Part shown: positions 9,678-31,126 of the stretch, in pieces | Layout of the letters: each line of letters begins with the position of its first letter | Numbering within the stretch: position 1 is the first letter of the stretch | Assembly (NCBI GenBank): GCA_900548735.1 | Contig: URMC01000001.1 | Span: 240 to 64,239 of the forward strand | Length of the DNA: 64,000 nucleotides | Reading direction: 5' to 3' | Source: an uncultured Eubacteriales bacterium | GTDB lineage: Bacteria > Bacillota > Clostridia > Oscillospirales > CAG-272 | Position numbers and translations under genes: made by a program | The notes under the pieces: model-generated | The model's input: the letters and a program-made list of their open reading frames with translations, nothing else | Database searches by the model: none | Told to the model about the DNA's origin: nothing

Positions 9678-10185
9678 AGTTCCTCATTTCCGCGCCGGTC
9701 ACGGCGAAATTTCTTTTTTACAGTATACCATAACGCCGGGGCAAATGCAAGCGGCGGCACGTCTTTTTTCTGCCGGCACTGCACTGCGGCGGGAGATGTG
9801 TTATGATAATATGATGGAAGCATTCCGTAATATATAAGGTGCCTCGATTCGTAACGGCAATCCGAATTTCGTTATCGGTTGCAAAAACAACGTTAAAAGT
9901 GATCCGAGTTTCAATGCCAAAGTGTGGATGTTCAGCCGTTTTCTTTCGATCGCAATCCCCAAAGTCAACGAAAAAGGACAAAATTGTGCGGTGATGCCTT
10001 AAAAAAGAGCCAAACTCAACAGCGAGTCTGGCTCTTGGTGTTATTTGAGCATAGAAAAAGCCGAGCGATGAAACGCCCGGCTGATTCTTCTTTTTGCCGT
10101 TCAAATCGACTTTTATGCCGAAATATTCGTTAAAAAAGAACAATACGAACTCTAACTTATCGTCAGGGTTCGTATTATTCCTTAA

Positions 10186-10241
10186 TGGCGGAGAGGATGG
10201 GATTCGAACCCATGTGGGGTTGCCCCCAAACGGTTTTCAAG
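10186..10241. repeat. attL-type direct repeat: orphan copy of the 3' 56 nt of tRNA-Ser(UGA)
   Basis: TGGCGGAGAGGATGGGATTCGAACCCATGTGGGGTTGCCCCCAAACGGTTTTCAAG is identical to 32205-32260. The copies diverge at the next base on both sides. Confidence 0.9.
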
Positions 10242-10647
10242 GCATAATAACCATGCGGAATTTAAGGGATTTTAGAAGACGATACCGGACGATAAAAGAA
10301 GCTGAAACCCCAGTATTTACAAGGGCTTTCGGCTCTTTTTTGTTCGAACCTCAAAAAATCCTTGCGCCATAAGGCATAGCGATTTCTAAAAATATTTCTA
10401 AAAAATTTTTAGAAATTCTTTTAGAAATGCACCCCCGTTTGTGTGGTTCCTGTAGCTGAGTTTGATGCGGTCGTTCACTGTCACCGCACTTCACGGCGCA
10501 AATATTTCACCGCTGTAATCAAAGAGTACCGCTCCGCCAAAGCCGGATCGATAACTTGAATTTATTATAACACAAAGTAACAGAGATTGCAAAAGATAAG
10601 AATCGGCGAATTATTCCGCAAATTCAAAAATATTATTCCGAACCCTA

Positions 10648-10676
10648 TTGAATTTATGCCGAAAATGTGGTATACT
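10648..10676 (+). promoter_or_regulatory. candidate promoter of the Fic/type I R-M operon
   Basis: TTGAAT (10648-10653), 17-nt spacer, TG-extended TATACT (10671-10676), about 50 nt upstream of ATG 10729. Confidence 0.5.
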
Positions 10677-10728
10677 TATTCTGATAAATTGTATTATTTT
10701 GAGAACTCAATGTAACGAGGTATGAATC

Positions 10729-11625
10729 ATGGCTATGACGACCAAGAAAGCCGCCGAGAAATGGGGCATCTCCGACAGACGCGTCCGTACGCTCTGCGTA
10801 AACGGACAGATTGACGGTGCATGGCGCGAGGGCAAACTCTGGTTTGTTCCCGATAACGCCCCAAAACCTGCCGACGGACGTATTCGCGGAAAGGAAACCC
10901 TTCTCGCCCAAATTGAAAGAAAGAAAAAAGAACTCGACGGTCGCAGACCGCTTACCGAAGGTGAAGTGGCGCGTTTGAACGAGGACTTCATGATCGAATA
11001 TACCTACAACTCCAACGCAATCGAGGGCAATACCTTAACTTTGCGTGAAACCGATATGGTTCTGAAGGGCTTGACCATCGATCAAAAACCGCTGAAGGAC
11101 CACATGGAAGCGGTCGGTCATAAAGATGCGTTCTATTTCATCTGCGACCTTGTCAAGGATCGCACTCCCCTCTCCGAATCGGTTATCAAGCAGATTCATT
11201 CCCTCGTTCTTGCGGATAAACCGCTCGACCGAGGCGTGTACCGCAGAGTGCCTGTTCGCATCATGGGCGCAAAGCAGGAACCTGTCCAGCCCTATCTCAT
11301 TGAGCCAAAAATGAATGACCTTATGCAGCAGTACGCGACCGATGAGCGCAACATCGTGGAAAAACTCGCCGACCTGCATATCGCGTTTGAGGCCATCCAT
11401 CCCTTCATCGACGGCAACGGCAGAACCGGACGCCTCATCATCAACCTTGAACTGATGAAAGCCGGCTACCCCCCCATCGATATCAAGTTCACCGATAGAA
11501 TGAGATATTACGACGCCTTCGACCATCGTTCCGAGATGGTAAAACTCTTCGCAGAGTATCTCAATAAGCGATTGGATCAGTATTTGGATGTTTTAACTGA
11601 CGAAGCAAATGAAAGCGAGAAGTAA
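10729..11625 (+). CDS. Fic family protein with N-terminal HTH domain
   Basis: Fic motif HPFIDGNGRTGR. An internal inhibitory-helix-type motif SNAIEG lies upstream of the core. The N-terminal KKAAEKWGISDRRVRTLCVNGQIDGA is HTH-like. The stop is 3 nt before the hsdM start. Confidence 0.85.
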   Translation: MAMTTKKAAEKWGISDRRVRTLCVNGQIDGAWREGKLWFVPDNAPKPADGRIRGKETLLAQIERKKKELDGRRPLTEGEVARLNEDFMIEYTYNSNAIEGNTLTLRETDMVLKGLTIDQKPLKDHMEAVGHKDAFYFICDLVKDRTPLSESVIKQIHSLVLADKPLDRGVYRRVPVRIMGAKQEPVQPYLIEPKMNDLMQQYATDERNIVEKLADLHIAFEAIHPFIDGNGRTGRLIINLELMKAGYPPIDIKFTDRMRYYDAFDHRSEMVKLFAEYLNKRLDQYLDVLTDEANESEK

Positions 11626-11627
11626 TA

Positions 11628-14075
11628 ATGGCCATCAAAAAGAATGAATTATACAGCTCCCTGTGGGCAAGTTGCGATAAACTCAGAGGCGGAATGGATG
11701 CCTCGCAGTATAAGGATTACATACTGACACTTCTGTTTGTCAAATATGTTACCGATAAGTTCAAGGATGTCAAATATGCAGACATCACCGTCCCTGAAGG
11801 CGGAAGTTTTGACGACCTTGTTGCACTCAAGGGGAACAAAAATATTGGCGAAGAAATGGACAAGGTGATTGCAAAACTCGCTGAAGCCGAAAACAATAAT
11901 CTTCGCGGAGTGATAGATAACGCACATTTCAATGACGAGGCAAAGCTCGGCAAGGGCCAGGAAATGGTGGACAAGCTCACTGGTCTGATTGCCATTTTTC
12001 AGCGTCCGGAATTTGATTTCAAGAACAATAAAGCTGGCGGGGATGATATTCTCGGTGACGCATACGAATATTTGATGCGCAACTTTGCTACGGAGAGCGG
12101 AAAGAGCAAAGGGCAATTCTATACTCCTGCCGAGGTTTCCCGAATTCTTGCAAAGGTTATCGGGATTGATAAGGTAACCGACCCGGACACATCGGTCTAT
12201 GACCCTGCCTGCGGATCCGGCTCCCTGCTGATCAGAGCGGCAGATGAGGCTCCCATCGATGTAGCTATTTACGGCCAGGAAAAAGAGATCACCACTGCCG
12301 GTCTTGCAAAAATGAACCTTGTTCTGCACAATAAAGCAACGGGAGAAATATACGCCGGAAATACATTCTCCGACCCTCATTATAAAGATGATAAGGATGA
12401 TTCCGTGCTCCGTCGCTTTGATTTTGCAGTTGCCAACCCGCCCTTTTCGCTGAAAAACTGGACGGACGGAGTCAAGGACTACGGTAGATTTACAGGTTAC
12501 GGTGCGGAACCGCCCGAAAAGAACGGTGATTTTGCTTGGCTTTTGCATATTCTCAAATCTCTCAAATCCACAGGTAAAGCAGCAGTCATTCTGCCGCACG
12601 GTGTTCTGTTCAGAGGAAACGCAGAGGCAACCATTCGTAAAGCCATTATCGACAAGGGATATATCAAAGGCATCATCGGTCTGCCCGCTAACCTCTTTTA
12701 CGGCACGGGTATTCCTGCGTGCATTATCGTAATTGACAAATCCGATGCCGACGAGCGTCAGGGTATTTTTATGATCGACGCAAGCCACGATTATGTCAAG
12801 GACGGCAATAAGAACCGGTTGCGTGAGCGTGATATTTATAAAATCGTCACTACCTTCAACGAGCAGATCAGTACTGACCCGAAGTATGCCCGTTTTGTGC
12901 CGAATGAGGAGATCAAGGTCAAGAATGATTACAATCTGAACATTCCTCGCTATATTGACAGCTCCGAACCGGAAGATTTACAGGATATCGACGCGCATCT
13001 GCATGGCGGGATTCCGGCAGCAGATGTGGATTCCATGGAAAAGTATTGGACGCTTTTCCCGAACCTGAAAAATAAACTGTTTTCCCCTTTGCGTGACGGT
13101 TACTATAAGCTGAATATCAAAAAGGACGATGTCCGCAGCACGATATATTCCGACGAGGAATTTAACGCATACGCTGATCGTATTGATATGGCATTCGACG
13201 CCTGGAAAAACGAGGTGGACGACGGCCTGCGTAATATCAACGAATCGGTAAATATCAAAAAATACATCACCAAGCTTGCGGAAGCGCTCATTGCACAGTA
13301 TGCCGACATGGAACTTGTGGACAAGTATGATGTTTATCTGGTTCTCCTTTCCTATTGGCAGGAGACGATGGCTGACGATATCTTCATACTTATTCAGGAC
13401 GGATATGAGGCGGCAAGAGAAACCGAACTCATTATAGAGGTAACAGAGGACAAAAAGACAAAGAAGGAAAAGCAAAAGATCAAGGGTTGGGAAGGCAAAC
13501 TGATTCCCAAGTCGTTAGTCGAAACCGCATTCTTTGCCAAAGAGCGTGCGAAGATCGACGAAGCGCAGGCAATTGTTGACGAAACGCAGAGCCGACTTGA
13601 CGAGATGACCGAAGAACACACCGCGGAGGACGGCGTTCTTTCCGACTGCCTGAACGACAAGGATGCGGTAGATATGAAAGCGGTATCTGCCAAGCTCAAC
13701 GAATTGAAAAAGAACGCTCCTGACAGCGAGGACTACCGTGTTCTGCTGGAATACACCGAGCTTTGCGAGAAGGTGAAGAAATACAGCAAGATCGTTAAGG
13801 AGTTGAACACCGCGCTTGACGAAGCCTGCAAAGCGAAGTATGCCGAACTGACGATGGACGAAATCAAGGAACTGCTTGTCAACCGCAAGTGGTATTACAC
13901 CATTTTTGCAGGTATCAAAGCCCTGTATATCACCACCTCCCATGAGATCGCCGGACGCATTACCGAACTTGCCGAGCGTTACGAAAACACCCTGCCCGAG
14001 CTTGAATCGGAACTTGAGACATACGAAGCCAAAGTAAAGGCGCATCTCGAAAGGATGGGATTTGTATGGAATTAA
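11628..14075 (+). CDS. hsdM: type I restriction-modification system methyltransferase subunit (long form with coiled-coil C-terminal extension)
   Basis: Motif I VYDPACGSGSLL and motif IV FDFAVANPPFS. The ~300-aa C-terminal region is charged and helical. Confidence 0.9.
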   Translation: MAIKKNELYSSLWASCDKLRGGMDASQYKDYILTLLFVKYVTDKFKDVKYADITVPEGGSFDDLVALKGNKNIGEEMDKVIAKLAEAENNNLRGVIDNAHFNDEAKLGKGQEMVDKLTGLIAIFQRPEFDFKNNKAGGDDILGDAYEYLMRNFATESGKSKGQFYTPAEVSRILAKVIGIDKVTDPDTSVYDPACGSGSLLIRAADEAPIDVAIYGQEKEITTAGLAKMNLVLHNKATGEIYAGNTFSDPHYKDDKDDSVLRRFDFAVANPPFSLKNWTDGVKDYGRFTGYGAEPPEKNGDFAWLLHILKSLKSTGKAAVILPHGVLFRGNAEATIRKAIIDKGYIKGIIGLPANLFYGTGIPACIIVIDKSDADERQGIFMIDASHDYVKDGNKNRLRERDIYKIVTTFNEQISTDPKYARFVPNEEIKVKNDYNLNIPRYIDSSEPEDLQDIDAHLHGGIPAADVDSMEKYWTLFPNLKNKLFSPLRDGYYKLNIKKDDVRSTIYSDEEFNAYADRIDMAFDAWKNEVDDGLRNINESVNIKKYITKLAEALIAQYADMELVDKYDVYLVLLSYWQETMADDIFILIQDGYEAARETELIIEVTEDKKTKKEKQKIKGWEGKLIPKSLVETAFFAKERAKIDEAQAIVDETQSRLDEMTEEHTAEDGVLSDCLNDKDAVDMKAVSAKLNELKKNAPDSEDYRVLLEYTELCEKVKKYSKIVKELNTALDEACKAKYAELTMDEIKELLVNRKWYYTIFAGIKALYITTSHEIAGRITELAERYENTLPELESELETYEAKVKAHLERMGFVWN

Positions 14076-14767
14076 ATGATAGGATCCGGAATAGGCATTG
14101 TGGCTGTGATCTTGATTCTCATTTCTGGAAAACGAGTAACGAGTACACGGCACTTGCGTGCTTAAAATATTGCTTCGAAGAAAAATACAGACACTTAAGA
14201 AAAGCGGAAGCACCGGACTTGCAAGATGCTGAAAATTCGGTTGCTATTGAGGTAACGGATTCTGTTACGCCTAATGATGCACAAACCATTGGCGAGTTCA
14301 CAAAACTGTCGCAGGTAAACTCGGAAAAACAGAAAGAAAAATGTCGCGAAAAAATCAGTCGGAACGGAGCCAGACTTCTTGGCGACGGGATGATGGCTTG
14401 GCCATCTCGTGGTCCGGAGACGGAAAAACGTGAAATTATAAATGCCTTTGTTCAGAAACTGTCCAAAATTTCCAAGTATCGAAAAATGGGGTTTGCAAAT
14501 ATAGGGCTGTTGATTTATCATGAAAAGCCTGCTTTTTCCGAAACCATAGATAATTTCCCCGAATGGCTGATAGATGCTCAGAAAGATTGTGCAGACAAAT
14601 ATGATTTTGTTTACATATTGCATGTCGAAGGACTTCTATTTTATGATTTTGCAAATAGAGAAAAGAGCGAGATAATAATACCGCATGAGGATAAATATGC
14701 TCTCGGAAATCTCGGAAGAATGGCTGCAGAAGGTGAGGTGAAAGATGATGATCCCATATGGCTATAA
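14066..14767 (+). CDS. hypothetical protein embedded between hsdM and hsdS
   Basis: Its ATG overlaps the hsdM stop (ATGGAATTAA), and its end overlaps the hsdS start by 23 nt. It has an HCGCDLDSH cluster and a PD...IEVT segment (APDLQDAENSVAIEVTD). I recognise no family. Confidence 0.6.
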   Translation: MELNDRIRNRHCGCDLDSHFWKTSNEYTALACLKYCFEEKYRHLRKAEAPDLQDAENSVAIEVTDSVTPNDAQTIGEFTKLSQVNSEKQKEKCREKISRNGARLLGDGMMAWPSRGPETEKREIINAFVQKLSKISKYRKMGFANIGLLIYHEKPAFSETIDNFPEWLIDAQKDCADKYDFVYILHVEGLLFYDFANREKSEIIIPHEDKYALGNLGRMAAEGEVKDDDPIWL

Positions 14768-15962
14768 ACAGACCGAGGTTGGTGTGATTCCTGAGGATTG
14801 GGAGTGCGTAAAGATCAAAGATGTTGCAACAATATCAATGTGTAAACGGATATTCGCTAATCAAACAAGCACAATCGGTGATGTCCCTTTTTATAAAATC
14901 GGTACATTTGGTAAAGAAGCGGATGCTTGTATTTCAAGCAAATTGTATGTAGAGTATAGGAATAAATATTCATTTCCACAAAAAGGGGATATTTTGATTT
15001 CTGCTGCTGGTACTTTAGGAAGAACAGTGGTTTACGACGGAGAGAAAGCCTATTTTCAAGATTCAAACATTGTATGGCTTGATATAAACAAGACTAGACT
15101 GTGCAATGAATATTTGAATCAATATTATAAGGTGATAAAATGGGCTTCTTCGGAAGGTAGTACGATTGCAAGATTGTATAACGGAATTATTTACGCAACC
15201 TATATTTCTCTCCCGCCTCTTCCAGAGCAGCAACGCATTGCTGAAGCACTTTCGGATGTGGACGGCATGATTTCTTCGCTTGAAAAACTGATTGCAAAGT
15301 ATAAGTCCATCAAAACAGCTTGCCTGCAACAGATGTTTCCGCAAAACGGAGAAACAGTCCCGCGTATACGTTTGCCCGGATTTACGGGCGCTTGGGAACA
15401 GCGTAAGTTGAATGAAGTTGTTAATGTGTATGATGGTGTTCATCAAACTCCTGACTATAAAGATAGCGGAGTAATGTTCCTTTCTGTCGAGAATATCAGT
15501 ACCCTTAAATCAGAGAAATATATTTCTGAAGAAGCGTTTCAGAGGGATTATAAAGTATATCCGCAAAAGGGTGATATTTTAATGACGAGGATTGGTGATG
15601 TTGGGACTCCAAATGTGGTTGAAACCACGGAAAAAGTGGCTTTTTATGTGAGTTTAGCACTCCTTAAACCGACAAAAATAAATAGTTATTTTTTGTGCAA
15701 TTCTATCCAATCTCCTCTATTTCAGAAAGGCTTGAAAGATAGAACTTTAGTGACTGCTATTCCACAAAAAATCAATAAAGACGAAATAGGAAAAGTTAAT
15801 ATTCTTTTACCTACTTCATCACAAGAACAGCAGCTTATTGGCGATTATTTCCGCAACCTTGACAACCTTATCACCCTTCATCAGCGTAAGTTGGAAAAAA
15901 TACAGAAAATCAAACAAGGTATGATGCAACACCTGTTGACCGGAAAAATTAGACTTGTGTAA
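14745..15962 (+). CDS. hsdS: type I restriction-modification system specificity subunit
   Basis: Two variable TRD halves separated by conserved helices LPPLPEQQRIAEALSDVDGMISSLEKLIAKYKSIK and EQQLIGDYFRNLDNLITLHQRKLEKIQKIKQGMMQHLLTG. Confidence 0.9.
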   Translation: MMIPYGYKQTEVGVIPEDWECVKIKDVATISMCKRIFANQTSTIGDVPFYKIGTFGKEADACISSKLYVEYRNKYSFPQKGDILISAAGTLGRTVVYDGEKAYFQDSNIVWLDINKTRLCNEYLNQYYKVIKWASSEGSTIARLYNGIIYATYISLPPLPEQQRIAEALSDVDGMISSLEKLIAKYKSIKTACLQQMFPQNGETVPRIRLPGFTGAWEQRKLNEVVNVYDGVHQTPDYKDSGVMFLSVENISTLKSEKYISEEAFQRDYKVYPQKGDILMTRIGDVGTPNVVETTEKVAFYVSLALLKPTKINSYFLCNSIQSPLFQKGLKDRTLVTAIPQKINKDEIGKVNILLPTSSQEQQLIGDYFRNLDNLITLHQRKLEKIQKIKQGMMQHLLTGKIRLV

Positions 15963-15974
15963 AGGAGAATTATT

Positions 15975-17480
15975 ATGTCGTTGGAAATTCAACTTGAAAT
16001 TCAAAAAATTAAAAATATAAACAACTTTAAATACGCATTTTCATTTGATAAAGGAATATATGCGTTGGTGGGCGAAAATGCAGTCGGCAAAAGCACGGTT
16101 ATGTCTGCAATTGCTTCGGTGGTGTATGGGCAAAACTTAAAAAAATTAGGAGATTCTGAATTGTGTTCAGAATCAAAAGTTAAGATTACTTGCATGAGCA
16201 AAGAAAATAATTGGTCTTTTGATGAAATTGCTAAAAGACTAAATCCAGATTTTCTTGGTATTTCTTTCTATGGAATATACGAGGGTAGTGTTTTTAATGG
16301 TACAAGATTTGAGGATATGAAAAATCTTGACGATCTAATTAGCGATCCCTCTTTCATCGATCAATTGGTGCCAGCAACAGATGATTTAAAAGCCGCTTTA
16401 AGTCAAATTTTACATGGAGAAAAAGGTCATTACCAAGAACTGTATAAATTAAAAACTATGGATATTGCAAGAAGGTATGGCCTTGGAAATATACCCTATT
16501 TCTTAAAATTGCCCAGTGGTAAATATATAAGTAAATATAAAATGAGTTCTGGTGAATGCATGTTGATTTCATTACTAAATTTTATAAATTCGACTGCGTT
16601 AAACCCAAGACAGATCAAACACAAACATAAAGTAACAAGCGACCGTTTGTTTGTTTTCATTGACGAAGTGGAATTGGCGTTGCATCCGAGTTCTATTGAC
16701 CGTTTGTTGGAGTATATGTTAAATATGATACAACAAAAGGAACTAACTGTTTTGTTTTCTTCTCATTCGTCAGAACTAATCCGAAAGATAAATCCTCGTA
16801 ATATTTTTTATATGAAGAATGAGGCAGGAACAGCAAAAATAATTTCTCCATGTTATCCTCAATATGCCATTAGGAGCTTGTATAATCATGATGGATATGA
16901 CTGTACTATACTTGTCGAAGATAAAGTCGCCGAGCTGATAGTTAGAAAACTTATTGCAGATTATAGAACAAATAATAATCTCTTAATTAACGTTTTGCCC
17001 GTTGGCAGTTGGAGCAATACATTAGAACTTCAAAAAAATTTTTGTGAGCAAAATATTCTTGGTCGAGATAAATTTACATTTTCAATTATTGATGGAGATG
17101 TAAAAGATGAGGTAAACAAAAATACAAGTTACAAACCTTTGAAAAAACTATTTTTGCCAATTAAAAGTCTTGAAAAGTATCTATATGAAAAGATACTTAT
17201 AGAAAATAATGAGAATTTTATAAGATATTTTGGTAATCGATATTTTACATTAACATCATTTGATGAAGTTGTCAAAGAATGTAGGGGCAATACATATGTA
17301 ATGGAAGATAAAAGCGGTAAAGCTCTATATGAAGTAATTATTAAAAAACTTTCTGCAGAGAGAGTCGATGAGGAAACTTTAGTTAGAGATTTTAGTGAAT
17401 ATCTTTTTGAAAAGGAAAAGTTTGCGTCTCTACAGAGTAATATAGAAAAATTTATTAATGAGAATTTTACGAACAGATAA
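15975..17480 (+). CDS. ABC/SMC-type ATPase fused to a Toprim-like (OLD/DUF4435/RloB-like) domain
   Basis: Walker [10 protein letters not shown], signature-like MSSGE, Walker [16 protein letters not shown]-loop FSSHS. The C-terminal part has [10 protein letters not shown] (Toprim Glu strand) and [11 protein letters not shown] (DxD). SD AAAGGAG lies upstream. Confidence 0.65.
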
Positions 17481-17495
17481 TTTGGAGGTAAAATA

Positions 17496-20400
17496 ATGCC
17501 CCACATTGACCAAGTAGAAAAAGCAACACAAAATCGTGTTATCAAGTTTTTTGTAAACAATCTCCATTATACATATTTTGGCGACCTGCATGACAGCGAA
17601 AACAGCAATATCATGCAGGAGCGTCTCTATGCCTATTTGACGGGAAAGGGCGGTTATTCGGACAAGCTGGCTCTTCGTTCCATTGACGAACTTGTCCGCA
17701 CGGCAGGCAACCTCCAGCGCGGATTGTACGATGCCAACAAACAGGTGTACTGTCTGCTTAAATACGGGGCAAAGATTTCCGAAGAAGCCGGTGAAGCTCC
17801 GAAAACGGTCTTTTTTATCAATTTTGAGAATCCTGCAGAAAATGATTTTGCCATTGCCGAAGAGGTCACAGTCGTCGGCAACAATACAAAGCGCCCCGAT
17901 CTTGTCGTGTATGTAAACGGAATTGCGCTCGCCGTAATAGAACTCAAACGCAGCAGCGTTTCGGTCTCCGAGGGAATCAGGCAGAACCTAACCAACCAAA
18001 CAGCGCATTTTATCGAAAATTTCTTTACCACGGTACAATTCTGCATGGCGGGAAACGACAGCGAGGGCTTGCGCTACGGAACACTTCTCACTCCCGAAAA
18101 GCATTATTATGAATGGCAGGATGACGGTTTTGGCGAATTCCCGGAAGAAAGGAATGAAACCGATGTGCTGATTGAAGAAAAAAGCAAGGCGATTGAACAT
18201 CCTTTGGACAAGCAGCTTTATGCTATGTTCTACAAAAAGCGTTTTCTTGACCTGATCCACAACTTTATCATTTTTGATAAGGGTATTAAAAAGGTTTGCC
18301 GCTACAATCAGTATTATGCCATCAAGCGTGCGCAGTACCGTTTAACCGAAGAAAAACGCGGCGGCATCATCTGGCACACACAAGGCAGTGGAAAGACTCT
18401 TACTATGATATGGCTGTCCAAGTGGCTTCTTTCAAACAACCCGAATGCCCGTGTTTTGATTGTAACCGACCGTGAGGAACTCGACGATCAGATTGAGAAA
18501 GCATACAAGGGCGTTGATGAAACCATTGTGCGCACCAAAAGCGGCGATGATCTTGTGAAGCGTTTGAATGCCTTTGATGACCGTTTGATCTGCTCTTTGA
18601 TTCATAAATTCGGCAAAAAGGGCGGCGATGTGACCGAGAAGGATATTGACAAATATATTGAGGAAATCAAGACAGCATTGCCCGAAAACTATTGTGCCAA
18701 GGGAGACTTCATCGTATTTGTGGACGAATGCCACCGCACGCAGTCGGGCAAACTCCATGCCGCCATGAAAACGATTATTCCAAACGGTATTTTTGTCGGT
18801 TTCACAGGTACACCCCTGCTTAAAAAAGACAAAAAGACAAGTCTTGAAACCTTTGGCGGGTATATTCACACCTATAAATTTGATGAGGCGGTACGCGACG
18901 GCGTTGTGCTCGATCTTCGCTATGAATACCGTGATATTCCGCAGGAGATCAAGTCCCAGGACAAGATAGACACATGGTTTGAGGTCAAGACAAGAGGTCT
19001 AACCCCTCGCGCACAGGCAAGGCTGAAATCCATGTGGGCAACGATGCAGAAGGTATTTTCCTCACGCTCTCGCCTGGAAAAAATTGCGCTTGACATTCAA
19101 TTTGACTTTGAAACAAAACCTCGCCTGATGGATGGCAACGGAAATGCAATGCTTGTTGCCGGCTCGGTTTACTCCGCTTGCAAATACTATGAGATTTTTC
19201 AGCAGATCGGCTTCAAAAAGTGTGCAATTATCAGTTCATATGAACCGCAGGCAGGTGACCTGCGCACGGATACGGTAAGCGATGATGAAGAAACCGAAAC
19301 ATTTGAAAAGTACGATATTTATAAGAAGATGCTCGGCGGTCAGAGCGTAGAAGATTTCGAGAAAGAAGCAAAGAGAAAGTTTGTCGAAGAACCGGCAAAT
19401 ATGAAATTGCTCATCGTAGTTGACAAACTTCTTACTGGTTTTGACGCGCCTCCCTGCACGTATCTCTACATTGACAAAGCGATGCACGACCACGGTTTGT
19501 TCCAGGCGATATGCCGCGTTAACCGCCTTGATGGCGAAAGCAAGGATTTTGGTTACATTGTAGACTATAAGCAACTTTTCGGAGATCTTGCCGATGCTAT
19601 AAATACCTATACATCTGGTGCATTTGAGGATTATGATGCTGAAGATGTTGAGGGACTCCTGAAAGACCGTACCGAAGAATCCAAGAAATATTTTCTTGAA
19701 ACGATTGACGCTTTGGACGAACTATGTGAAGGCGTTGCTGTTCCAAAGACAGAACTGGATTATATTCACTATTTTTGTGGTGAAAACGGCGTTGATCCCG
19801 ACAATGATGAGGCTTTTGCCCGCAGCCGCGAAAAACTGTACAAGCTCGTCTCCCGTCTGATTCGTGCATATGCCGAATTCAAGCCAAGAATGGATGATGC
19901 AGGATTCTCCGCAACAGAGCAATCCGGATTTGAGAAGCGTGTCAACACATATATCAAACTTCGAGAGGTAATCGGTCGGGCAAGTGGTGACTTCTTGGAT
20001 TTCAAGCAGTTTGAACCGGGTATGCGCTATCTGATCGATAACTACATTGTTGCCGACGATGCGGAAAAGATTGCTATCTTTGATGATTTCACGCTTCTTG
20101 ACTTCATTTTGGCACAAGAAGATAAGCTGAATCAGGACGGCGAAAGTAAGGAACAAGAAAGTGCTGCGGAAGCAATTGAGAACAATATTCGTAAAAAGGT
20201 TGTTCAGAAGATAGTAATTAACCCTGCGTATTACAGTAAGATGTCCGAAGTCCTTGAACAGTTGATTCTTGATCGAAAGCGTGGTGTGATTGCATACAAA
20301 CAATTGCTTGAGCGTTATCTGGAACTTGCCAAGAATGTAAGCACTCCCGAAGAAAACGCACGCTATCCTGAGTCTATTCGCAAGAGCGGGGCGATGAGAG

Positions 20401-20597
20401 CGTTTTATGACAACTGCGGAGAGGATGAGCAATTGGCAATACAGTTGCACAAAGCTGTTTTGTCCTCTAAAATGGACGGATTCAGGAATAATCCCACAAA
20501 AGAAAACAGAATCAAGCGTGCATTGTATCAAGTTTTAAAAAACGATGAAACGGTTGAACGCATATATAAAATTGTCGTGGAACAAGAGGAATATTGA
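17496..20597 (+). CDS. hsdR: type I restriction endonuclease subunit R
   Basis: N-terminal PD-(D/E)xK nuclease RPDLVVYVNGIALAVIELKR. Helicase motif I HTQGSGKTLT and motif II FVDECHRTQ. Confidence 0.9.
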   Translation: MPHIDQVEKATQNRVIKFFVNNLHYTYFGDLHDSENSNIMQERLYAYLTGKGGYSDKLALRSIDELVRTAGNLQRGLYDANKQVYCLLKYGAKISEEAGEAPKTVFFINFENPAENDFAIAEEVTVVGNNTKRPDLVVYVNGIALAVIELKRSSVSVSEGIRQNLTNQTAHFIENFFTTVQFCMAGNDSEGLRYGTLLTPEKHYYEWQDDGFGEFPEERNETDVLIEEKSKAIEHPLDKQLYAMFYKKRFLDLIHNFIIFDKGIKKVCRYNQYYAIKRAQYRLTEEKRGGIIWHTQGSGKTLTMIWLSKWLLSNNPNARVLIVTDREELDDQIEKAYKGVDETIVRTKSGDDLVKRLNAFDDRLICSLIHKFGKKGGDVTEKDIDKYIEEIKTALPENYCAKGDFIVFVDECHRTQSGKLHAAMKTIIPNGIFVGFTGTPLLKKDKKTSLETFGGYIHTYKFDEAVRDGVVLDLRYEYRDIPQEIKSQDKIDTWFEVKTRGLTPRAQARLKSMWATMQKVFSSRSRLEKIALDIQFDFETKPRLMDGNGNAMLVAGSVYSACKYYEIFQQIGFKKCAIISSYEPQAGDLRTDTVSDDEETETFEKYDIYKKMLGGQSVEDFEKEAKRKFVEEPANMKLLIVVDKLLTGFDAPPCTYLYIDKAMHDHGLFQAICRVNRLDGESKDFGYIVDYKQLFGDLADAINTYTSGAFEDYDAEDVEGLLKDRTEESKKYFLETIDALDELCEGVAVPKTELDYIHYFCGENGVDPDNDEAFARSREKLYKLVSRLIRAYAEFKPRMDDAGFSATEQSGFEKRVNTYIKLREVIGRASGDFLDFKQFEPGMRYLIDNYIVADDAEKIAIFDDFTLLDFILAQEDKLNQDGESKEQESAAEAIENNIRKKVVQKIVINPAYYSKMSEVLEQLILDRKRGVIAYKQLLERYLELAKNVSTPEENARYPESIRKSGAMRAFYDNCGEDEQLAIQLHKAVLSSKMDGFRNNPTKENRIKRALYQVLKNDETVERIYKIVVEQEEY

Positions 20598-21316
20598 TGC
20601 AAATTGAGATTTCTGGAATTACAATAGACATACAAAAAAAGAATATCAAAAATATGCATCTTGCTGTTTTACCTCCCGACGGGAAGGTGCGCGTTTCAGC
20701 TCCGATGCATTTGTCGGATGAAAGCATCGCTATGTTCGTTCGGACCAAGCTTGTCTGGATAAAAAAACAACAGGAAAAGTTTGCACTTCAACCCCGGCAA
20801 TCCGAACGTGAGTTTATTTCCGGCGAAACACTATATGTTTTTGGTAAACAGTATTTTCTGCGAGTGATGTACAGTTATAAGGGAAACTCTCTTGTACTCA
20901 ACGGCAATGAAGCCGTCCTAACGGTACGAAAGGAAAGCACGGCAAGGCAGCGTGAAGCGTTTGTTAATGAATGGTACCGTGATTTGCTGAAAGAAAAGAT
21001 AAGCATCTATTTACCAAAATGGGAACAGATAACCGGGTTGTATTGTGATTCCTGGCAGACGAAATACATGACTACCCGTTGGGGAACCTGCAATACAAAC
21101 ACCCGCAAAATATGGTTCAATCTGCAACTTGCAAAAAAGCCGATAGAATGTCTGGAATATGTTATTCTCCACGAATTGGCACATTTGAAAGTGAAAAACC
21201 ACGGAAAGGATTTCATTGCAATTTTAGATATGTATATGCCATACTGGAGAGAAACTAAGAAATTGCTGAATGATTTTAAACTTGATTATATGGAATCAAA
21301 AGAGTTAGAAGAATAA
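20597..21316 (+). CDS. YgjP/DUF45-type (M48-like) zinc metallopeptidase
   Basis: HExxH in VILHELAHLKVKNHGKDF. The ATG overlaps the hsdR TGA (TTGATG). Confidence 0.8.
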   Translation: MQIEISGITIDIQKKNIKNMHLAVLPPDGKVRVSAPMHLSDESIAMFVRTKLVWIKKQQEKFALQPRQSEREFISGETLYVFGKQYFLRVMYSYKGNSLVLNGNEAVLTVRKESTARQREAFVNEWYRDLLKEKISIYLPKWEQITGLYCDSWQTKYMTTRWGTCNTNTRKIWFNLQLAKKPIECLEYVILHELAHLKVKNHGKDFIAILDMYMPYWRETKKLLNDFKLDYMESKELEE

Positions 21317-21357
21317 ACAAAGTATTAAGCAGAAAATCCACAAGATAGGAGGACGCC

Positions 21358-22740
21358 ATGGCAAAAAAGAAAGTTAAAAAAAGAGATTTTTCAAAGGCAA
21401 AGGAAAAGGCAATAAAGGCGTTGAAAATCTCCGCGAAAGCATTGATTGCGATTATAGGAATTACTATAACTGTTGCATTTTTAGTTGTTCCATTTTTACA
21501 TAATAAAATAGATGCTGTAGTTGCGAAATGCATATGGTATCCTGCGAGCATAGTGTTTGCTGCATCTGCAATTGTAAATATGGTTAAGCAACCGAAGCAA
21601 TCTGTAAAACATCCGATGTCCGATTTTATAGGAAATCTCGGTATTGTTCCAATTATTGTAATTCTCGGTAGTGCTTTTGTTATAAATTATTATACTACCG
21701 CTTATACTTGGTGGTGGGCTATATTCATTTTAGTTGCTCTTTTTCTGCCATCCATCACATTTGGGTTGCGCAACTTTTTGAAAAAGGAGAATGAGTATAC
21801 CGACGATCAATTAAAAATATCTTTGAAGATTAGTTGGAAATACGTTGGCTTCTATTGGCTGATGGATCTGTTCTATATGGCAATTTTTAATTATTGGATC
21901 GCTGATGTACAGTCACAAACGATTTGGCTTACGTTGCAGTTTGTTTTTGGCGGATTGGCGATGGTATACATCTTTTACAATCTCGCAAGAGCATTTCTCT
22001 CCAACGCTCAAAAACGGTGGTGGGGGCTGTTACAAGATTTCATGTGGGGTATTGCAATCACCATCTACTTGATATTCCTTATCCCCAATGACGCTCTTCA
22101 AACCATCGTACTGTCAATCACAGCAGCAGTATATGGCGGATTGTTAACACTGGTAGGTGTTGCTTGGACGATTAAGGATACTAATGAGAAACGAAAAGAA
22201 GATTTGTTACGTATTGAAAATGAGCGAAAAGAAGAAGAAAGAAAAAAACATATTCCGTATATAAGGGTTTCCTTTGATGTGGACAATCTTCCGCCCGTTG
22301 TAGTAAATGCTAACATTACTAAAGGATTAGATTTCGAAAAGAAGGAAGATCTTACTCTTCTAAAAAACAAAATGTTTTATTCTGTGAACATTAAAAACTT
22401 TGATATAAAAAACATTTCTTCGCAAAACATTATTATTAAAGGAATTATTGTTCACGGGAAATTTTATGAATTCTCCTCAGAAGAAATTCTCGAACCAAAT
22501 GTGTGCTGTAAAATACAAACCACAAATAATTGGTGGATACCTGTTGCTCATCCAACGAACAAGCTTACATTAATTGTTAGCGATGTAATTGGTAATCTGT
22601 ATGAAATTGAATGCCATATATCATATGATATTGAAACATCGCGTCATCAAATAGCAACCGTTGGAGATGAAGAATATACAGGGTTTGAATGCTCCTACAT
22701 AGTAACATCCGTAGGATTACCTATATTCATTCCGCAATAA
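21358..22740 (+). CDS. hypothetical polytopic membrane protein with charged linker and C-terminal soluble beta-rich domain
   Basis: SD AGGAGG upstream. By eye there are about 7-8 hydrophobic helices in residues 25-270. These are followed by KRKEDLLRIENERKEEERKK and a ~170-aa C-terminal domain. I recognise no family. Confidence 0.6.
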   Translation: MAKKKVKKRDFSKAKEKAIKALKISAKALIAIIGITITVAFLVVPFLHNKIDAVVAKCIWYPASIVFAASAIVNMVKQPKQSVKHPMSDFIGNLGIVPIIVILGSAFVINYYTTAYTWWWAIFILVALFLPSITFGLRNFLKKENEYTDDQLKISLKISWKYVGFYWLMDLFYMAIFNYWIADVQSQTIWLTLQFVFGGLAMVYIFYNLARAFLSNAQKRWWGLLQDFMWGIAITIYLIFLIPNDALQTIVLSITAAVYGGLLTLVGVAWTIKDTNEKRKEDLLRIENERKEEERKKHIPYIRVSFDVDNLPPVVVNANITKGLDFEKKEDLTLLKNKMFYSVNIKNFDIKNISSQNIIIKGIIVHGKFYEFSSEEILEPNVCCKIQTTNNWWIPVAHPTNKLTLIVSDVIGNLYEIECHISYDIETSRHQIATVGDEEYTGFECSYIVTSVGLPIFIPQ

Positions 22741-22767
22741 TACAAATACTTAGATGGAAATTTGGCA

Positions 22768-23145
22768 ATGACAAAACAACAATTCCTTGAATACTGCCTC
22801 ACTACATACAACACATCTCCGGACTATCCGTTTGATGAGGATTTTGAAACGGCGGTGCTCCGGCACGCGGATAATCGCAAGTGGTATGCACTCGTGATGC
22901 GGGTATCACGTCGCAAGTTCGGTTTTGACAGCAACGAGGTCATCGACGTTGTCAATCTGAAGCTGCCGGTGGAGATGTTCGGCTCCTTTGGCGCGGCGGA
23001 CGGTGTCTATCCCGCCTATCACATGAACAAGCTCCATTGGATCTCGGTGCTTCTGCCCGACGCGCCCGAGGATGTAGTGCGGTTCCTTGTGAACGTGAGC
23101 TTTGAGGCAACGAAGGACAAGAGAAAACGTCAAAAGAACATTTGA
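22768..23145 (+). CDS. MmcQ/YjbR family protein
   Basis: YPFDEDFETAVLRHADNRKWYALVM...KLHWISVLL is YjbR-like. It is GC-richer than its neighbours. Confidence 0.7.
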   Translation: MTKQQFLEYCLTTYNTSPDYPFDEDFETAVLRHADNRKWYALVMRVSRRKFGFDSNEVIDVVNLKLPVEMFGSFGAADGVYPAYHMNKLHWISVLLPDAPEDVVRFLVNVSFEATKDKRKRQKNI

Positions 23146-23186
23146 ACAGTAAAGGGATGGATCGCGCCATCCCTTTTTGTAATATT

Positions 23187-24491
23187 TTATGCTTCTAAAC
23201 TATCCTTATCAAGCAAAAATTCCTTTACGCCAATCATAACATATCCTTTTTCATCACGGCGGGGTTTCATACTCTTTTCAACAACGACGATCTTTTTGAA
23301 AGAATCCATGGTCTTATCAAAAGATGCGGTTTCTTGTTCGTACTTGGTCTGATCGGGAATCGCATACGCGGACTGAATATAGTATTTTTTGCTGCCGAGA
23401 GTAGCAATGAAGTCAATCTCGAGTTGGGTGCGGGTTTCTTTTCCGTCTGCGTCTCTTTCGCGTGATTCTACCATACCCACATCCACTTGGTAGCCTCTGT
23501 AACGAAGCTCATTATAAATAATATTCTCCATAATGTGAGTGCCTTCAATCTGGCGGAAATTCAAACGAGCGTTGCGAAGACCGATATCCTCAAAGTAAAT
23601 TTTATAAGGAGTGCCTATATATTTTCTGCCTTTGACATTATATCGCTTCACACGGGTGAGCATAAAGGCATCTTCCATATGGGAGATATAACGGTCTACG
23701 GTAGCATCGCAGATTCTGTTGCCGCCGTGAACACTATTCATAGTGTTCGCAATGTTTCGAGGATTGGTAAGAGCCGAGATATCGGATGCAACAACATCAA
23801 GAACTTCTCCAATGGTTACTTCATCCTGCAATCCGTAACGATTTTTTATGTCGCGCAAGTAAAGATTTTGCATCTGAGAAATAAGGTAATTGGACTTCTG
23901 TTCTTCGGTTGCCATAAGTGCTACAGCCGGTAAGCCGCCATAGATAGAATAATCGTCAAAGGCCTCGCTTTTATCGCCGCCTTTGAACGCATAATACTCC
24001 GAGAAGGATAGAGGGAGTACGTGAACCTCATCACCTCTGCCTTCAAATTCGGTCAGAATATCCTTTGATAAGAATTTGGAATTGCTTCCGGTTACATATA
24101 CGTCAAGATTGCTTTTGCGAAGAAATCCGTTCATAACCGATTCAAACGCTCCGAGCTTTTGTACCTCGTCAAGCAGAATATAGTGCATCTCTTTGTCTGC
24201 AATCTGTGGTTGCAACCAATTCAAAAATTTAGAGGGATCGACTTTTCTGTCCTCACGTTCATTATCGAGAACGATAGGATCTTCTCCGATTTTCAATAAA
24301 TCGTCAGCCGAGTCGAACGCAAATTTAATAATATGATCCTCTGCTATGTTTTCTGCAATTAAGTGATTATAAAACAAAGTGTTGAGCAAATATGATTTTC
24401 CGCTTCTGCGAATACCGGTAATAACCTTTATGAAGCCGTTGTATTTTCTGACAATCAGTCTATTTAGATAAACGTCTCTTTTAATCTCCAT
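23187..24491 (-). CDS. AAA+ ATPase with C-terminal DUF4143 (nuclease-like) domain
   Basis: Walker A GIRRSGKSYLL and Walker B YILLDEVQ. The C-terminal LEIDFIATLGSKKYYIQSAY block is typical of AAA_14/DUF4143 proteins. Start taken as MEIKRDVYL at ATG 24491. Confidence 0.75.
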   Translation of the reverse strand: MEIKRDVYLNRLIVRKYNGFIKVITGIRRSGKSYLLNTLFYNHLIAENIAEDHIIKFAFDSADDLLKIGEDPIVLDNEREDRKVDPSKFLNWLQPQIADKEMHYILLDEVQKLGAFESVMNGFLRKSNLDVYVTGSNSKFLSKDILTEFEGRGDEVHVLPLSFSEYYAFKGGDKSEAFDDYSIYGGLPAVALMATEEQKSNYLISQMQNLYLRDIKNRYGLQDEVTIGEVLDVVASDISALTNPRNIANTMNSVHGGNRICDATVDRYISHMEDAFMLTRVKRYNVKGRKYIGTPYKIYFEDIGLRNARLNFRQIEGTHIMENIIYNELRYRGYQVDVGMVESRERDADGKETRTQLEIDFIATLGSKKYYIQSAYAIPDQTKYEQETASFDKTMDSFKKIVVVEKSMKPRRDEKGYVMIGVKEFLLDKDSLEA

Positions 24492-24500
24492 AATAACCCC

Positions 24501-24616
24501 CATCTAATATTTTTGCCGCAATCGTCACTTTTATTAGATACATTATACACCGTGTTTTTGAAAATTGCAATAGGTTCATCTAATATTTTTGCCTCAAACG
24601 GCGATTTTATTAGATC
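24501..24616. repeat. two ~39-bp direct repeats, each with 8-bp inverted ends (ATCTAATA...TATTAGAT)
   Basis: CATCTAATATTTTTGCCGCAATCGTCACTTTTATTAGAT at 24501-24539 and CATCTAATATTTTTGCCTCAAACGGCGATTTTATTAGAT at 24578-24616, directly upstream of the ATPase start. Confidence 0.8.
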
Positions 24617-24647
24617 AACTGAAGTAACGAGATAAATAACGATTATA

Positions 24648-24669
24648 GGGTGGGGTTTTTCCCCCACCC
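24648..24669 (+). terminator. GC-rich hairpin, terminator-like on the plus strand
   Basis: GGGTGGGG-TTTTT-CCCCCACCC followed by TACTTTTT. No plus-strand CDS lies upstream. Confidence 0.5.
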
Positions 24670-24816
24670 TACTTTTTAAACGAATCTAACATCTCTATGC
24701 GATCTGGATCAAATCATCCCAGACCACTTTTTTGTGTTTGGGTTGTGGTCCCAAGGTTCACGACCACATTAAAAGTCGAAGCATTATGGGCGCTTAAAAA
24801 AATTTTGCGAAAAATA

Positions 24817-24891
24817 TGGAACATTTTGTTCCAGCCCTATTGACAAGAGGAAAATCCTGTGTTATAATGTCGAATGGAACAATTTGTTCCA
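24817..24891 (+). promoter_or_regulatory. promoter with two palindromic operators for the LexA-like repressor
   Basis: O1 TGGAACATTTTGTTCCA (24817-24833). TTGACA (24840-24845), 17-nt spacer, TG-extended TATAAT (24863-24868). O2 TGGAACAATTTGTTCCA (24875-24891), abutting the AAGGAG SD. Confidence 0.65.
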
Positions 24892-24901
24892 AGGAGAAAC
24901 G

Positions 24902-25522
24902 ATGAGTAGAACTACCGATTCGAAAAAGCAGATCATCCTGGATTACATCAACGAATACTACGGAAGCTACGGTGAAACGCCCACGGTGCGTGACATCGCG
25001 GCAGGAACAGGCATTGCCGTTACGAGCGTTCACCGTTATCTTTCTGCTATGAAAGAGGACGGCGAACTGGAATACAACGGTCGCCGTTCCGTCAGCACCC
25101 GCCGCATGGAGATGGAGCAGGTCGCTCACGCCATGCCAGTGCTTGGCTACGTAGCCTGCGGAGAAGGTCAGGAAGAAACCGAGCAGGTCATCGAATACAT
25201 TCGTATGCCCGAATCCTTGGTTGGCAAGGGCGAATTCTTTGCGCTGATCGCAAAGGGCGAGTCGATGATCGACGCAGGGATTCATCCCGGCGATTACGTG
25301 ATGATCCGCAAGCAGAACACCGCAGATATCGGTGACATTGTCGTTGCACTTGATGGGGGACTCAACAACCTGAAAGTCCTCGGCTTCAACAATGCCAAGG
25401 GCAGATATTTCCTTCGCTCCTGCAACGAGGACAAAAAACGTTACGGTGACATCTATCCCGAAGAACTTCAGATTCAGGGCGTTGCCGTTTGCGTTGCACA
25501 CAGGCTCAAAAAGATACTGTAA
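24902..25522 (+). CDS. LexA-like (S24 peptidase) transcriptional repressor
   Basis: N-terminal winged-helix region (ETPTVRDIAAGTGIAVTSVHRYL). C-terminal S24 fold with GESMIDAGIHPGDYVMIRKQ and NNLKVL. Confidence 0.8.
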   Translation: MSRTTDSKKQIILDYINEYYGSYGETPTVRDIAAGTGIAVTSVHRYLSAMKEDGELEYNGRRSVSTRRMEMEQVAHAMPVLGYVACGEGQEETEQVIEYIRMPESLVGKGEFFALIAKGESMIDAGIHPGDYVMIRKQNTADIGDIVVALDGGLNNLKVLGFNNAKGRYFLRSCNEDKKRYGDIYPEELQIQGVAVCVAHRLKKIL

Positions 25523-25843
25523 CCTCACCTTTCACATAACAGCATCTTTGCCGATTCACAATTGAATATTTCTTTATCTATCGCGTAAAAAACACGATCC
25601 ATCCTCCCGACCTCTTAACCGGGAATCAAGGGTAGGTATCTGTTGCGTTAGAGTGTACATAGGAAAACCATAAGTTTTGGCTTATGTTTTTTCGTTATGC
25701 TCTGCAACAGATACCTGCCCTTTTTTGCGTTTGTTTCCAAGGCGCAAAAGGAAGGCAGAAGAAAAGCAGAGCCACATATCGGGAAACGAGGTGCGCAACT
25801 CCTTTCCCCAATCAAATATTTCTTCAACGAAAGGAGATTACGA

Positions 25844-26935: not shown

Positions 26936-26969
26936 AGCGTTTATCGCCAGTTTCGCCTTTGTATTACGA

Positions 26970-27125: not shown

Positions 27126-27153
27126 TTCACCCTTACAGAAAGGATTTCACTCT

Positions 27154-28729: not shown

Positions 28730-28730
28730 T

Positions 28731-31098: not shown

Positions 31099-31126
31099 AT
31101 TTTCAGAAATCCTCCTTATATTGTCG

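Follow-up and report, generated by a model that had tools for sequence, protein, structure and literature searches.

In a 64,000-nt stretch of contig URMC01000001.1 (assembly GCA_900548735.1) from an uncultured Eubacteriales bacterium, referred to below as the window, a series of densely packed plus-strand genes is built around a type I restriction-modification (R-M) system (Table 1). Comparison with related loci makes it likely that this region represents an allele of a modular type I R-M operon that is widespread and bears swappable, largely autonomous embedded cargo. The layout would be [HTH-effector]-hsdM-(slot)-hsdS-(slot)-hsdR-ygjP-(slot)-yjbR, where HTH stands for a helix-turn-helix domain; the hsd genes and ygjP would make the conserved scaffold, while the genes for the Fic protein, a 233-aa protein, an ABC ATPase-Toprim fusion and a membrane protein would be separate embedded cargo of foreign base composition. 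The cargo may be exchanged between related operons by recombination, with breakpoints at the edges of the conserved hsd genes. The R-M enzyme is expected to provide first-line restriction, and the embedded genes would serve as largely autonomous second-line effectors that share the expression of the R-M operon. The ATPase-Toprim fusion would be an ATP-dependent nuclease of the OLD/HEC-04-like kind, Fic would be an auto-inhibited AMP-transferase and the 233-aa protein probably a PD-(D/E)xK-type nuclease; the fourth effector would be the membrane protein, with a beta domain that is variable and probably cytoplasmic.

The comparative set consisted of about 25 related loci found by anchoring on the 233-aa gene, the ATPase-Toprim gene or the membrane-protein gene; the sources were gut and rumen metagenomes and metagenome-assembled genomes (MAGs) of Clostridia and Oscillospiraceae. 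The loci have a common scaffold, hsdM-hsdS-[slot]-hsdR-ygjP, with accessory genes in four slots. Lineage A, retrieved with the 233-aa gene, is made of 13 loci (L005, L007 and L021-L031; seven complete and six partial) with the gene order hsdM-233aa-hsdS-[slot]-hsdR-ygjP. Identity to the window proteins was 78-97% for HsdM and, where the contig reaches, 86-89% for HsdR and 85-87% for YgjP. None of the 13 loci has the ATPase-Toprim or the membrane protein, and Fic was found in L031 only. The hsdS-hsdR slot has variable contents: unknown open reading frames (ORFs) of 104 and 236 aa along with PDC-M04A/B (DUF3800 type) in L007, a small transmembrane (TM) protein and a SIR2-like protein (PDC-S25) in L025, the small TM protein alone in L026, L028 and L029, an unknown 747-aa protein in L021 and an unknown 576-aa protein in L024. 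In L007 (about nine accessory genes), T5orf172 (PDC-S57) and TIR (PDC-S66) genes are situated downstream of ygjP and are followed by yjbR. The cargo of the relatives matched the models PDC-M04, PDC-S25, PDC-S53, PDC-S57 and PDC-S66.

The ATPase-Toprim anchor led to a sister lineage, C (L057-L064), with identities of 76% for HsdM, 74% for HsdR and 73-80% for YgjP. Here a 75-78% identical ATPase-Toprim occupies the same hsdS-hsdR slot, the 233-aa gene is lacking and hsdM and hsdS overlap directly; the genes upstream are either AAA_14/DUF4143 or Fic with GmrSD. One ATPase-Toprim protein of this lineage was indexed in 188 blocks of the collection. The nearest relatives of the whole island belong to lineage B (L069-71), retrieved with the membrane protein. 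Their DNA is 96-98.5% identical to the window over 10959-14062 and again from 17484 on (to 27017 in L069). Between these stretches they have a 3-kb replacement block with a different hsdS and genes of 195 and 387 aa, of which only a 178-nt hsdS core can be aligned, and they have neither the 233-aa gene nor the ATPase-Toprim gene. Judged from these alignments, positions 14063-17483 are an exchanged block, whose left breakpoint coincides with the 3' edge of hsdM and whose right one precedes hsdR by 12 nt. In this block, the 233-aa part is like lineage A (84% nucleotide identity) and the ATPase part is like lineage C (70% nucleotide identity), which makes the window a mosaic. The GC content of the genes from Fic to yjbR (51, 47, 41, 38, 31, 45, 39, 35 and 52%) agrees with such a mosaic. 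The hsdS-ATPase/Toprim-hsdR junction recurred at 99.7% identity in an independent sequencing run; therefore, it is not an assembly chimera.

Homologs of three of the accessory proteins were observed outside this hsd context. The membrane protein has homologs in L014, where an unrelated type I system on an island of this type has one between its hsdS and hsdR genes, in L012, amid Mrr, GmrSD, PARG and DUF3800 cargo, and in L015, next to Fic and Hypoth_Ymh genes. A 57% identical homolog of the ATPase-Toprim protein stands alone in another mobile element. Most occurrences of the 233-aa family lie away from hsd loci, and beyond lineage A no neighbor is constant (14 loci). On these grounds we regard the cargo as largely autonomous. 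As far as the alignments tell, the slots of the accessory genes are fixed, yet the genes assort independently of one another; only ygjP, along with yjbR at the border between cargo and backbone, stays with the scaffold, and the 233-aa gene is a constant feature of a single sub-lineage. Fixed slots combined with independent exchange favor a scaffold with swappable cargo over one co-evolved module. The initial annotation of this DNA had raised the questions of which accessory genes travel together with the hsd lineage and of whether they are randomly placed relative to it. The placement is indeed non-random, as the fixed slots show, but joint travel holds for YgjP alone, since the Fic, ATPase-Toprim and membrane-protein genes are exchanged independently.

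Eight plus-strand genes follow one another in the order HTH-Fic, hsdM, 233-aa gene, hsdS, ABC-ATPase/Toprim, hsdR, YgjP-like peptidase and membrane protein, at intergenic distances from -23 to +41 nt. A 2-nt spacer separates the Fic TAA from the hsdM ATG; hsdM and the 233-aa gene overlap by 10 nt, and the latter overlaps hsdS by 23 nt. Gaps of 12 and 15 nt flank the ATPase-Toprim gene upstream and downstream, the hsdR stop and the ygjP start share TGATG (-1 nt, with the ygjP start set to ATG 20597), and 41 nt separate ygjP from the membrane-protein gene. A Shine-Dalgarno sequence precedes each gene of the operon. All eight ORFs were thus present where the initial annotation had put them, domain searches agreed with its labels, and the tight packing it described, with the YgjP ATG overlapping the hsdR TGA, was reproduced. 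On the other hand, its end point at 22740 has to be moved: yjbR (start at ATG 22768; PF04237, 9.4e-16), the ninth co-directional gene, begins 27 nt after the membrane-protein gene and precedes the terminator.

The promoter-like site that had been reported at 10648 was recovered by our scan as a 9-of-12 match (10648-10676). In the related loci it aligns with TTGACA/TTGAAT and TGTG-TATACT elements situated ahead of different first genes. The terminator hairpin at 23151-23181 (folding energy of -20 kcal/mol, z-score of -3.58, none of 200 shuffled sequences equally stable) comes directly after the yjbR stop and faces the 3' end of the convergent AAA_14/DUF4143 gene. A hairpin search of the two larger gaps, before and after the membrane-protein gene, found none, and a scan of the block found no comparable plus-strand terminator within 10.7-23.1 kb. 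Most likely, one transcript covers the whole operon, initiated at the 10648-10676 promoter and ended by the 23151-23181 terminator. In this respect the single-promoter reading of the initial annotation seems right, with the promoter conserved and the only convincing terminator located after yjbR.

Still, the genes could belong to several independent co-oriented transcription units, for example with a promoter of hsdR-ygjP inside the 3' end of the ATPase gene. In the classical type I systems of E. coli hsdR is separately transcribed; in the window, weak plus-strand promoter-like sites exist at 17170-17197 and 17466-17494, and the recombination breakpoint at 17484 is just upstream of hsdR. However, both sites are 9/12 matches, commonplace in AT-rich DNA, the second one reaches into the Shine-Dalgarno sequence, with its end 2 nt from the ATG, and no terminator-like structure lies between the genes. 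We consider independent units unlikely.

A different possibility is that the accessory proteins are wired to the R-M enzyme, so that the eight or nine genes make one co-adapted multi-layer machine which, for example, senses the inhibition of R-M by phage anti-restriction proteins and then triggers abortive infection. The inferred co-transcription and the translational coupling would fit such a machine, as would the recurrence of the ATPase-Toprim in the same slot of a sister lineage seen in many samples. There are precedents as well: PrrC is hardly ever found other than embedded in a type I system (Payne et al. 2024, 10.1101/2024.01.29.577857), and, according to the discussion in that paper, ABC-ATPase systems such as PARIS are reportedly triggered by anti-defence proteins. 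The reading is weakened by the independent assortment described above: accessory genes are exchanged between near-identical relatives, the same gene set was found in 0 of the about 25 loci, GC content differs sharply between adjacent genes, and homologs of three accessory proteins work, or at least reside, in non-hsd contexts. An integrated machine therefore appears quite improbable. A layered combination of R-M with abortive infection, as suggested initially, is plausible.

The position of ygjP is the most constant one. The gene is immediately 3' of hsdR in every complete relative (L007, L021, L024, L025, L028, L029, L057-64 and L069-71). Of 521 plasmid records encoding a YgjP homolog two were inspected, a Citrobacter IncC and a Klebsiella IncF plasmid, and in both a YgjP/SprT-like peptidase gene abuts hsdR. 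The protein matched PF01863 (6.4e-60 over residues 26-227) with HELAH as its HExxH motif. A literature search on YgjP/DUF45/COG1451 with type I restriction returned nothing useful, so the linkage rests on the loci and on the plasmid annotations. Since it is conserved and translationally coupled to hsdR, YgjP is likely the one accessory protein that works with the R-M enzyme itself. Alternatively, some of the accessory genes might encode true components or regulators of this family of type I enzymes: YgjP would be a protease controlling HsdR (restriction alleviation or turnover), and the 233-aa protein, translated between HsdM and HsdS, would be an additional subunit or an assembly factor. This agrees with the ygjP start overlapping or abutting hsdR in all these loci and with the 233-aa gene overlapping both neighbors and being kept in 13 related loci, but it is very unlikely given that the 233-aa gene is lacking in the closest relatives (hsdM 96% identical) and in the sister lineage, where hsdM and hsdS overlap directly, and that its family lives mostly elsewhere. 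Nothing observed speaks against the YgjP part of this alternative, and that part is compatible with a scaffold that carries swappable cargo.

By domain criteria, the three core proteins qualify as subunits of a type I R-M system. HsdM contains HsdM_N (PF12161, 2.4e-16) and N6_Mtase (PF02384, 2e-100) and scored 272 bits against TIGR00497, above the cut-off of 242.75. HsdS matched Methylase_S (PF01420, 6.3e-43) in two stretches and PADLOC Specificity_I (3.1e-84) over residues 2-404. HsdR has HSDR_N (3.2e-35), SWI2_SNF2 (1.6e-69) and T1R_D3-like (1.1e-35) domains, and its TIGR00348 match (3e-162) reached 541.6 bits, above the cut-off of 284.55. Signs of a phase-variable hsdS (inverted repeats, a second hsdS, an invertase) were looked for and none was found. 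Among the related loci, L008 (Oscillospiraceae MAG CP091718.1) has hsdM, hsdS, hsdR and ygjP in many frameshifted pieces, likely a result of long-read assembly error rather than decay. In L023 (10699-12049) hsdM and the 233-aa gene are kept and an opposite-strand ORF of 395 aa is found in place of hsdS/hsdR; this system is probably disrupted.

The first gene of the operon may combine a regulator with an effector. Class II auto-inhibited Fic/DOC AMP-transferases are defined by the motifs HxFx(D/E)GNGRxxR and (S/T)xxxE(G/N). The translated protein (PF02661, 3.4e-20) has the former as HPFIDGNGRTGR and the latter as SNAIEG, situated N-terminal to the Fic core, where it is inferred to be inhibitory. 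In the Pfam search the HTH domain covered residues 3-41. This N-terminus is about 48% identical, over 56 aa, to that of an AAA-ATPase/PDDEXK_9 protein of the relatives. The PDDEXK_9 domains of the neighboring loci are themselves almost identical to one another. At the promoter, the direct repeats are spaced by 22 and 21 nt, and the third one falls inside the -35/-10 spacer; the pattern TTAT(T/G)CCG(C/A)A had 7 matches in the window compared to 1.8 expected, with 3 clustered at the promoter. Repeats of the TGTTCCG type are present at the corresponding promoter of L005, L021, L028 and L031. Such co-conservation suggests that the HTH domain of the first gene product probably binds the three repeats and auto-regulates the promoter.

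The ATPase-Toprim protein matched Pfam AAA_21, AAA_15 and SMC_N and has the motifs expected for an ABC ATPase: Walker A GENAVGKS (33-40), SSGE (191-194), Walker B FVFIDE (226-231) and H-loop SSHS (262-265). Toprim-type motifs ILVE315DK and IID373GD375 occupy positions near E319/D375/D377 of HEC-04; the Pfam Toprim model gave no match. The best PADLOC model was ATPase-Toprim_I-B (5.4e-47, covering residues 4-455). A retron I-B identity was rejected, with no reverse-transcriptase domain in any ORF of the operon and no noncoding RNA; a search for Rfam families, retron RNA included, found none besides tRNA.

No match to the 233-aa protein was found in Pfam, NCBIfam, PADLOC or PHROGs, nor by tblastn in the plasmid and phage collections. 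A word-indexed search yielded 49 relatives, none named or with a Pfam domain, and a full hidden Markov model search expanded the family to 810 clusters at 50% identity; Pfam found no domain in ten distant or fused members. In an alignment of 46 members, down to 22% identity, P50, D51, E62, V63 and K131 are invariant, with E26 and K134 nearly so. In the AlphaFold (AF2) model (pLDDT 92.6), E26 is in a helix, the PD pair is at the start of a strand and E62-V63 is in the next strand. A helix glutamate, PD at a strand and a glutamate in the following strand constitute the PD-(D/E)xK arrangement. The predicted secondary structure is in line with the alpha-beta-beta-beta-alpha-beta core of this superfamily. 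The third motif residue here is T, not K, and the lysine of the predicted site is possibly supplied by K131.

Other observations concern the neighbors and relatives of this gene. Pairing of the 233-aa gene with a RES-domain toxin was rejected, as the RES neighbor occurs in one element only (L001-4). In L014 (4971-6378) the hsdM/hsdS junction of the unrelated type I system holds a 217-aa unknown protein and a 254-aa protein with a weak RES domain; this RES-like pair is unrelated to the 233-aa protein (hhalign probability of 0.1%), which argues that the hsdM/hsdS junction is an insertion slot more generally. A 255-aa metagenomic protein (P0030) aligns with 64% of the 233-aa query at 70% identity; it also has YgjP/SprT Pfam domains and could be a fusion, a deletion variant or a product of a chimeric contig.

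The 460-aa membrane protein likewise had no match in Pfam, NCBIfam, PADLOC or PHROGs. For many of its more than 400 relatives, the alignment shows high identity in the N-terminal part but does not do so over the C-terminal third. The predicted model (pLDDT 80.5) has eight helices through the hydrophobic region, then a long charged helix and an all-beta part from about residue 300; no structural neighbor was found in PDB. The basic N-terminus and the even number of helices suggest that the beta domain is probably cytoplasmic.

Several points weigh against the interpretation given above. A Foldseek search of PDB and BFVD with the 233-aa model gave no significant neighbor (best E-values of 0.28 and 0.11), PD-(D/E)xK nucleases were among the matches only at E-values of 0.29-1.6, a profile search of PDB sequences with the family returned noise only, and its nuclease nature is hypothesized from motifs and predicted secondary structure. 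The likeness of the ATPase-Toprim protein to HEC-04 (7.5e-23) is at the domain-family level only, and its top PADLOC model is a retron effector, yet no reverse transcriptase is present. With respect to transcription, 53 promoter-like plus-strand sites were found compared to 35.5 expected, many of them weak and in AT-rich DNA, and internal promoters within coding sequence may exist. Finally, the LexA-like repressor of the island (24884-25522) could be an alternative binder at the putative operator.

The architecture resembles several known systems. Citrobacter IncC and Klebsiella IncF plasmids have hsdM-hsdS-[two genes]-hsdR-SprT/YgjP, an identical scaffold and slot, with different cargo (a TrlF-like ATPase and an RNA-binding protein in one; YecA-like and cold-shock-domain proteins in the other) and a YgjP only 30-45% identical. 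In EcoprrI-PrrC and in the Rlo genes an anticodon nuclease is kept silent by the type I enzyme. Similarly, the window has an ABC-ATPase-containing effector encoded between hsdS and hsdR; its predicted effector domain is Toprim, however, not an anticodon nuclease, and no PrrC model was among the 25 best PADLOC matches of the ATPase protein. The predicted ABC ATPase plus Toprim architecture is shared with OLD, Gabija GajA, PARIS AriA/AriB, retron I-B and Ec83/Septu PtuA, with weak to moderate profile matches to GajA (2.2e-14), Old (8.2e-13), AriA (1.4e-13) and PtuA (4.6e-12) and, in PDB, to the retron Ec83 ATPase (3.8e-5). Unlike these families, the protein is a single 501-aa polypeptide, no GajB, AriB, reverse transcriptase or PtuB is present at the locus, and the closest family is phrog_3940, whose function is unassigned.

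Genes embedded in type I R-M, BREX, DISARM and Hma systems are frequent and gave rise to the HEC and PDC models; among them HEC-04, an ABC ATPase-TOPRIM fusion, confers phage defence that needs the Walker A and metal-site residues (Payne et al. 2024, 10.1101/2024.01.29.577857). In the window, the ATPase-Toprim matches HEC-04, with an intact Walker A and a putative E/DxD metal site, though at the domain-family level and more weakly (7.5e-23) than it matches the retron I-B model, while Fic corresponds to PDC-S04 and AAA_14/DUF4143 to PDC-S01; the 233-aa protein, the 460-aa protein, YgjP and YjbR are without a PADLOC model. Another parallel is the RRDM island of enteropathogenic E. coli, rptR-hsdM-hsdS-darT-darG-hsdR-M48 peptidase, which is phage-protective and repressed via three direct repeats at its promoter (Zhang et al. 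2025, PMC12255303). Both loci begin with a DNA-binding function, predicted in the window from the HTH domain, followed by hsdM, hsdS, cargo between hsdS and hsdR, hsdR and a zinc metallopeptidase; both have one upstream promoter bearing three direct repeats; and both are horizontally acquired. The comparison is one of gene order and promoter layout. Among the differences, the HTH_17-type domain is fused here to a Fic effector, compared to a separate small RptR; the repeat motif is TTATKCCGMA rather than TAGCTA; the cargo between hsdS and hsdR is the ATPase-Toprim fusion instead of DarTG; two further slots (hsdM/hsdS and post-ygjP) are filled and yjbR is added; and the carrier is an integrative mobilizable element (IME) at tRNA-Ser in a Clostridia-type host. 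A megablast search of positions 10000-23000 against E. coli genomes gave no match.

These comparisons bear on two statements of the initial annotation. That the add-ons are individually known to associate with hsd loci was confirmed: Fic corresponds to PDC-S04, the ATPase-Toprim is HEC-04-like, and YgjP/SprT follows hsdR on the two plasmids. That their number in one transcription unit is unusual is not supported, given that relatives carry as many accessory genes or more, RRDM has the same layout and embedding is frequent.

Taken jointly, and as a tentative proposal only, the locus may encode a new nuclease family, a regulator-effector first gene and a third new family, of membrane defence proteins. 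The 233-aa protein would then be a PD-(D/E)xK-type single-gene anti-phage effector that colonized the coupled hsdM/hsdS junction; the HTH domain would auto-repress the whole operon via TTATKCCGMA; and infection would elicit a response from the swappable C-terminal effector, Fic here and AAA-ATPase+PDDEXK_9 in relatives.

An IME of about 22 kb, integrated in tRNA-Ser(tga), carries the operon as cargo, as indicated by perfect 56-nt direct repeats at the tRNA (10186-10241 and 32206-32261, 100% identical) and by the integrase, excisionase-like, relaxase, MobC and AAA_25 genes. The GC content is 43% between the repeat copies and 53-56% outside. The same backbone is present in L012, L014 and L069. 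Close to the left end, inside the island and ahead of the operon promoter, ATTTCTAAAA-type units (two direct, then two inverted copies) form a dense palindromic array at 10382-10428, where a regulatory or recombination protein might bind. The AAA_14/DUF4143 family, convergent to the operon here, occurs upstream of hsdM in L007 and L057. Two 39-nt repeats, 87% identical, are located at 24501-24539 and 24577-24615, followed by a strong bidirectional terminator at 24646-24671 and by a promoter of perfect consensus (TTGACA-17-TATAAT with TG, 24840-24868) that closely precedes the gene of the LexA-like repressor. The first DUF5677-like gene is 92% identical to a gene at the same position in L012; neither of the two such genes matched PADLOC. 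The host DNA next to the island has three direct repeats of 33 nt (CGCAGGTGCCGTCAGCC...) at 33322-33436.

Table 1. Coordinates of the operon and of other features of the island in the window.
Feature	Position	Strand	Basis or remark
Left 56-nt repeat, 3' part of tRNA-Ser, left island end	10186-10241		identical to 32206-32261
Three direct repeats TTAT(T/G)CCG(C/A)A at 10611, 10633, 10654, putative operator	10611-10663	+	clustered pattern
Predicted sigma-70/SigA-type promoter: TTGAAT, 17 nt, TGgTATACT (TG extension)	10648-10676	+	scan, conserved in relatives
HTH-Fic protein, 298 aa	10729-11625	+	N-terminal HTH_17-like domain; SNAIEG; active site HPFIDGNGRTGR; PDC-S04 4e-40
hsdM, long form, 815 aa, C-terminal extension of about 360 aa	11628-14075	+	PADLOC MTase_I PDLC03027 full length, 1166 bits
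Putative exchanged block (233-aa gene, hsdS, ATPase-Toprim)	14063-17483		different block in L069-71
Uncharacterised 233-aa gene at hsdM/hsdS junction	14066-14767	+	overlaps both neighbors; invariant E26..P50-D51..E62-V63..K131
hsdS, 405 aa, two target-recognition domains	14745-15962	+	Pfam, PADLOC
ABC ATPase fused to predicted Toprim nuclease domain, 501 aa, OLD/HEC-04-like, GC 31%	15975-17480	+	PADLOC, phrog_3940 1.3e-53
hsdR, 1033 aa	17496-20597	+	Pfam, PADLOC, NCBIfam
YgjP-like/SprT-like zinc metallopeptidase, 239 aa, HELAH	20597-21316	+	ATG overlaps hsdR TGA
Uncharacterised membrane protein, 460 aa	21358-22740	+	7-8 TM helices, charged helix, C-terminal all-beta domain (about 300-460)
yjbR-family gene, 125 aa	22768-23145	+	at same position in L007, L014, L069-71
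Predicted intrinsic terminator hairpin, AAAGGGAUGG...CCAUCCCUUU and U-run	23151-23181		between converging yjbR and AAA_14/DUF4143 genes
AAA_14/DUF4143 ATPase gene, convergent	23187-24503	-	PADLOC candidate PDC-S01 1.8e-101
LexA-like S24 repressor	24884-25522
AAA_25	25697-26935
NikA/MobC	26908-27474
MobA/VirD2 relaxase	27435-28412
HTH_17 excisionase-like gene	28427-28729
Tyrosine integrase	28674-29834
Two DUF5677-like genes (387 and 244 aa), GC 32-35%	29935-31938	-	between integrase and tRNA
tRNA-Ser(tga), integration target; 3' 56 nt is the right repeat	32206-32294	-	tRNA scan, repeat match

The layout itself is already known from the Klebsiella and Citrobacter plasmids, from RRDM and from the embedded genes of Payne et al. 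(2024), and no new kind of system is proposed here. The fresh elements are the 233-aa protein and the membrane protein, each from an uncharacterised family, and the combination of a conserved promoter/operator with a swappable HTH-effector first gene, which suggests a control circuit analogous to that of RptR. The embedded position of the two families, fairly widespread and drawn from gut Clostridia, nominates them as defence candidates. The locus presents a natural experiment on the movement of defence genes, with near-identical operons differing in the contents of four fixed slots, and it supports the idea that type I R-M genes may provide embedded defence genes with homology arms and with a platform for their expression.

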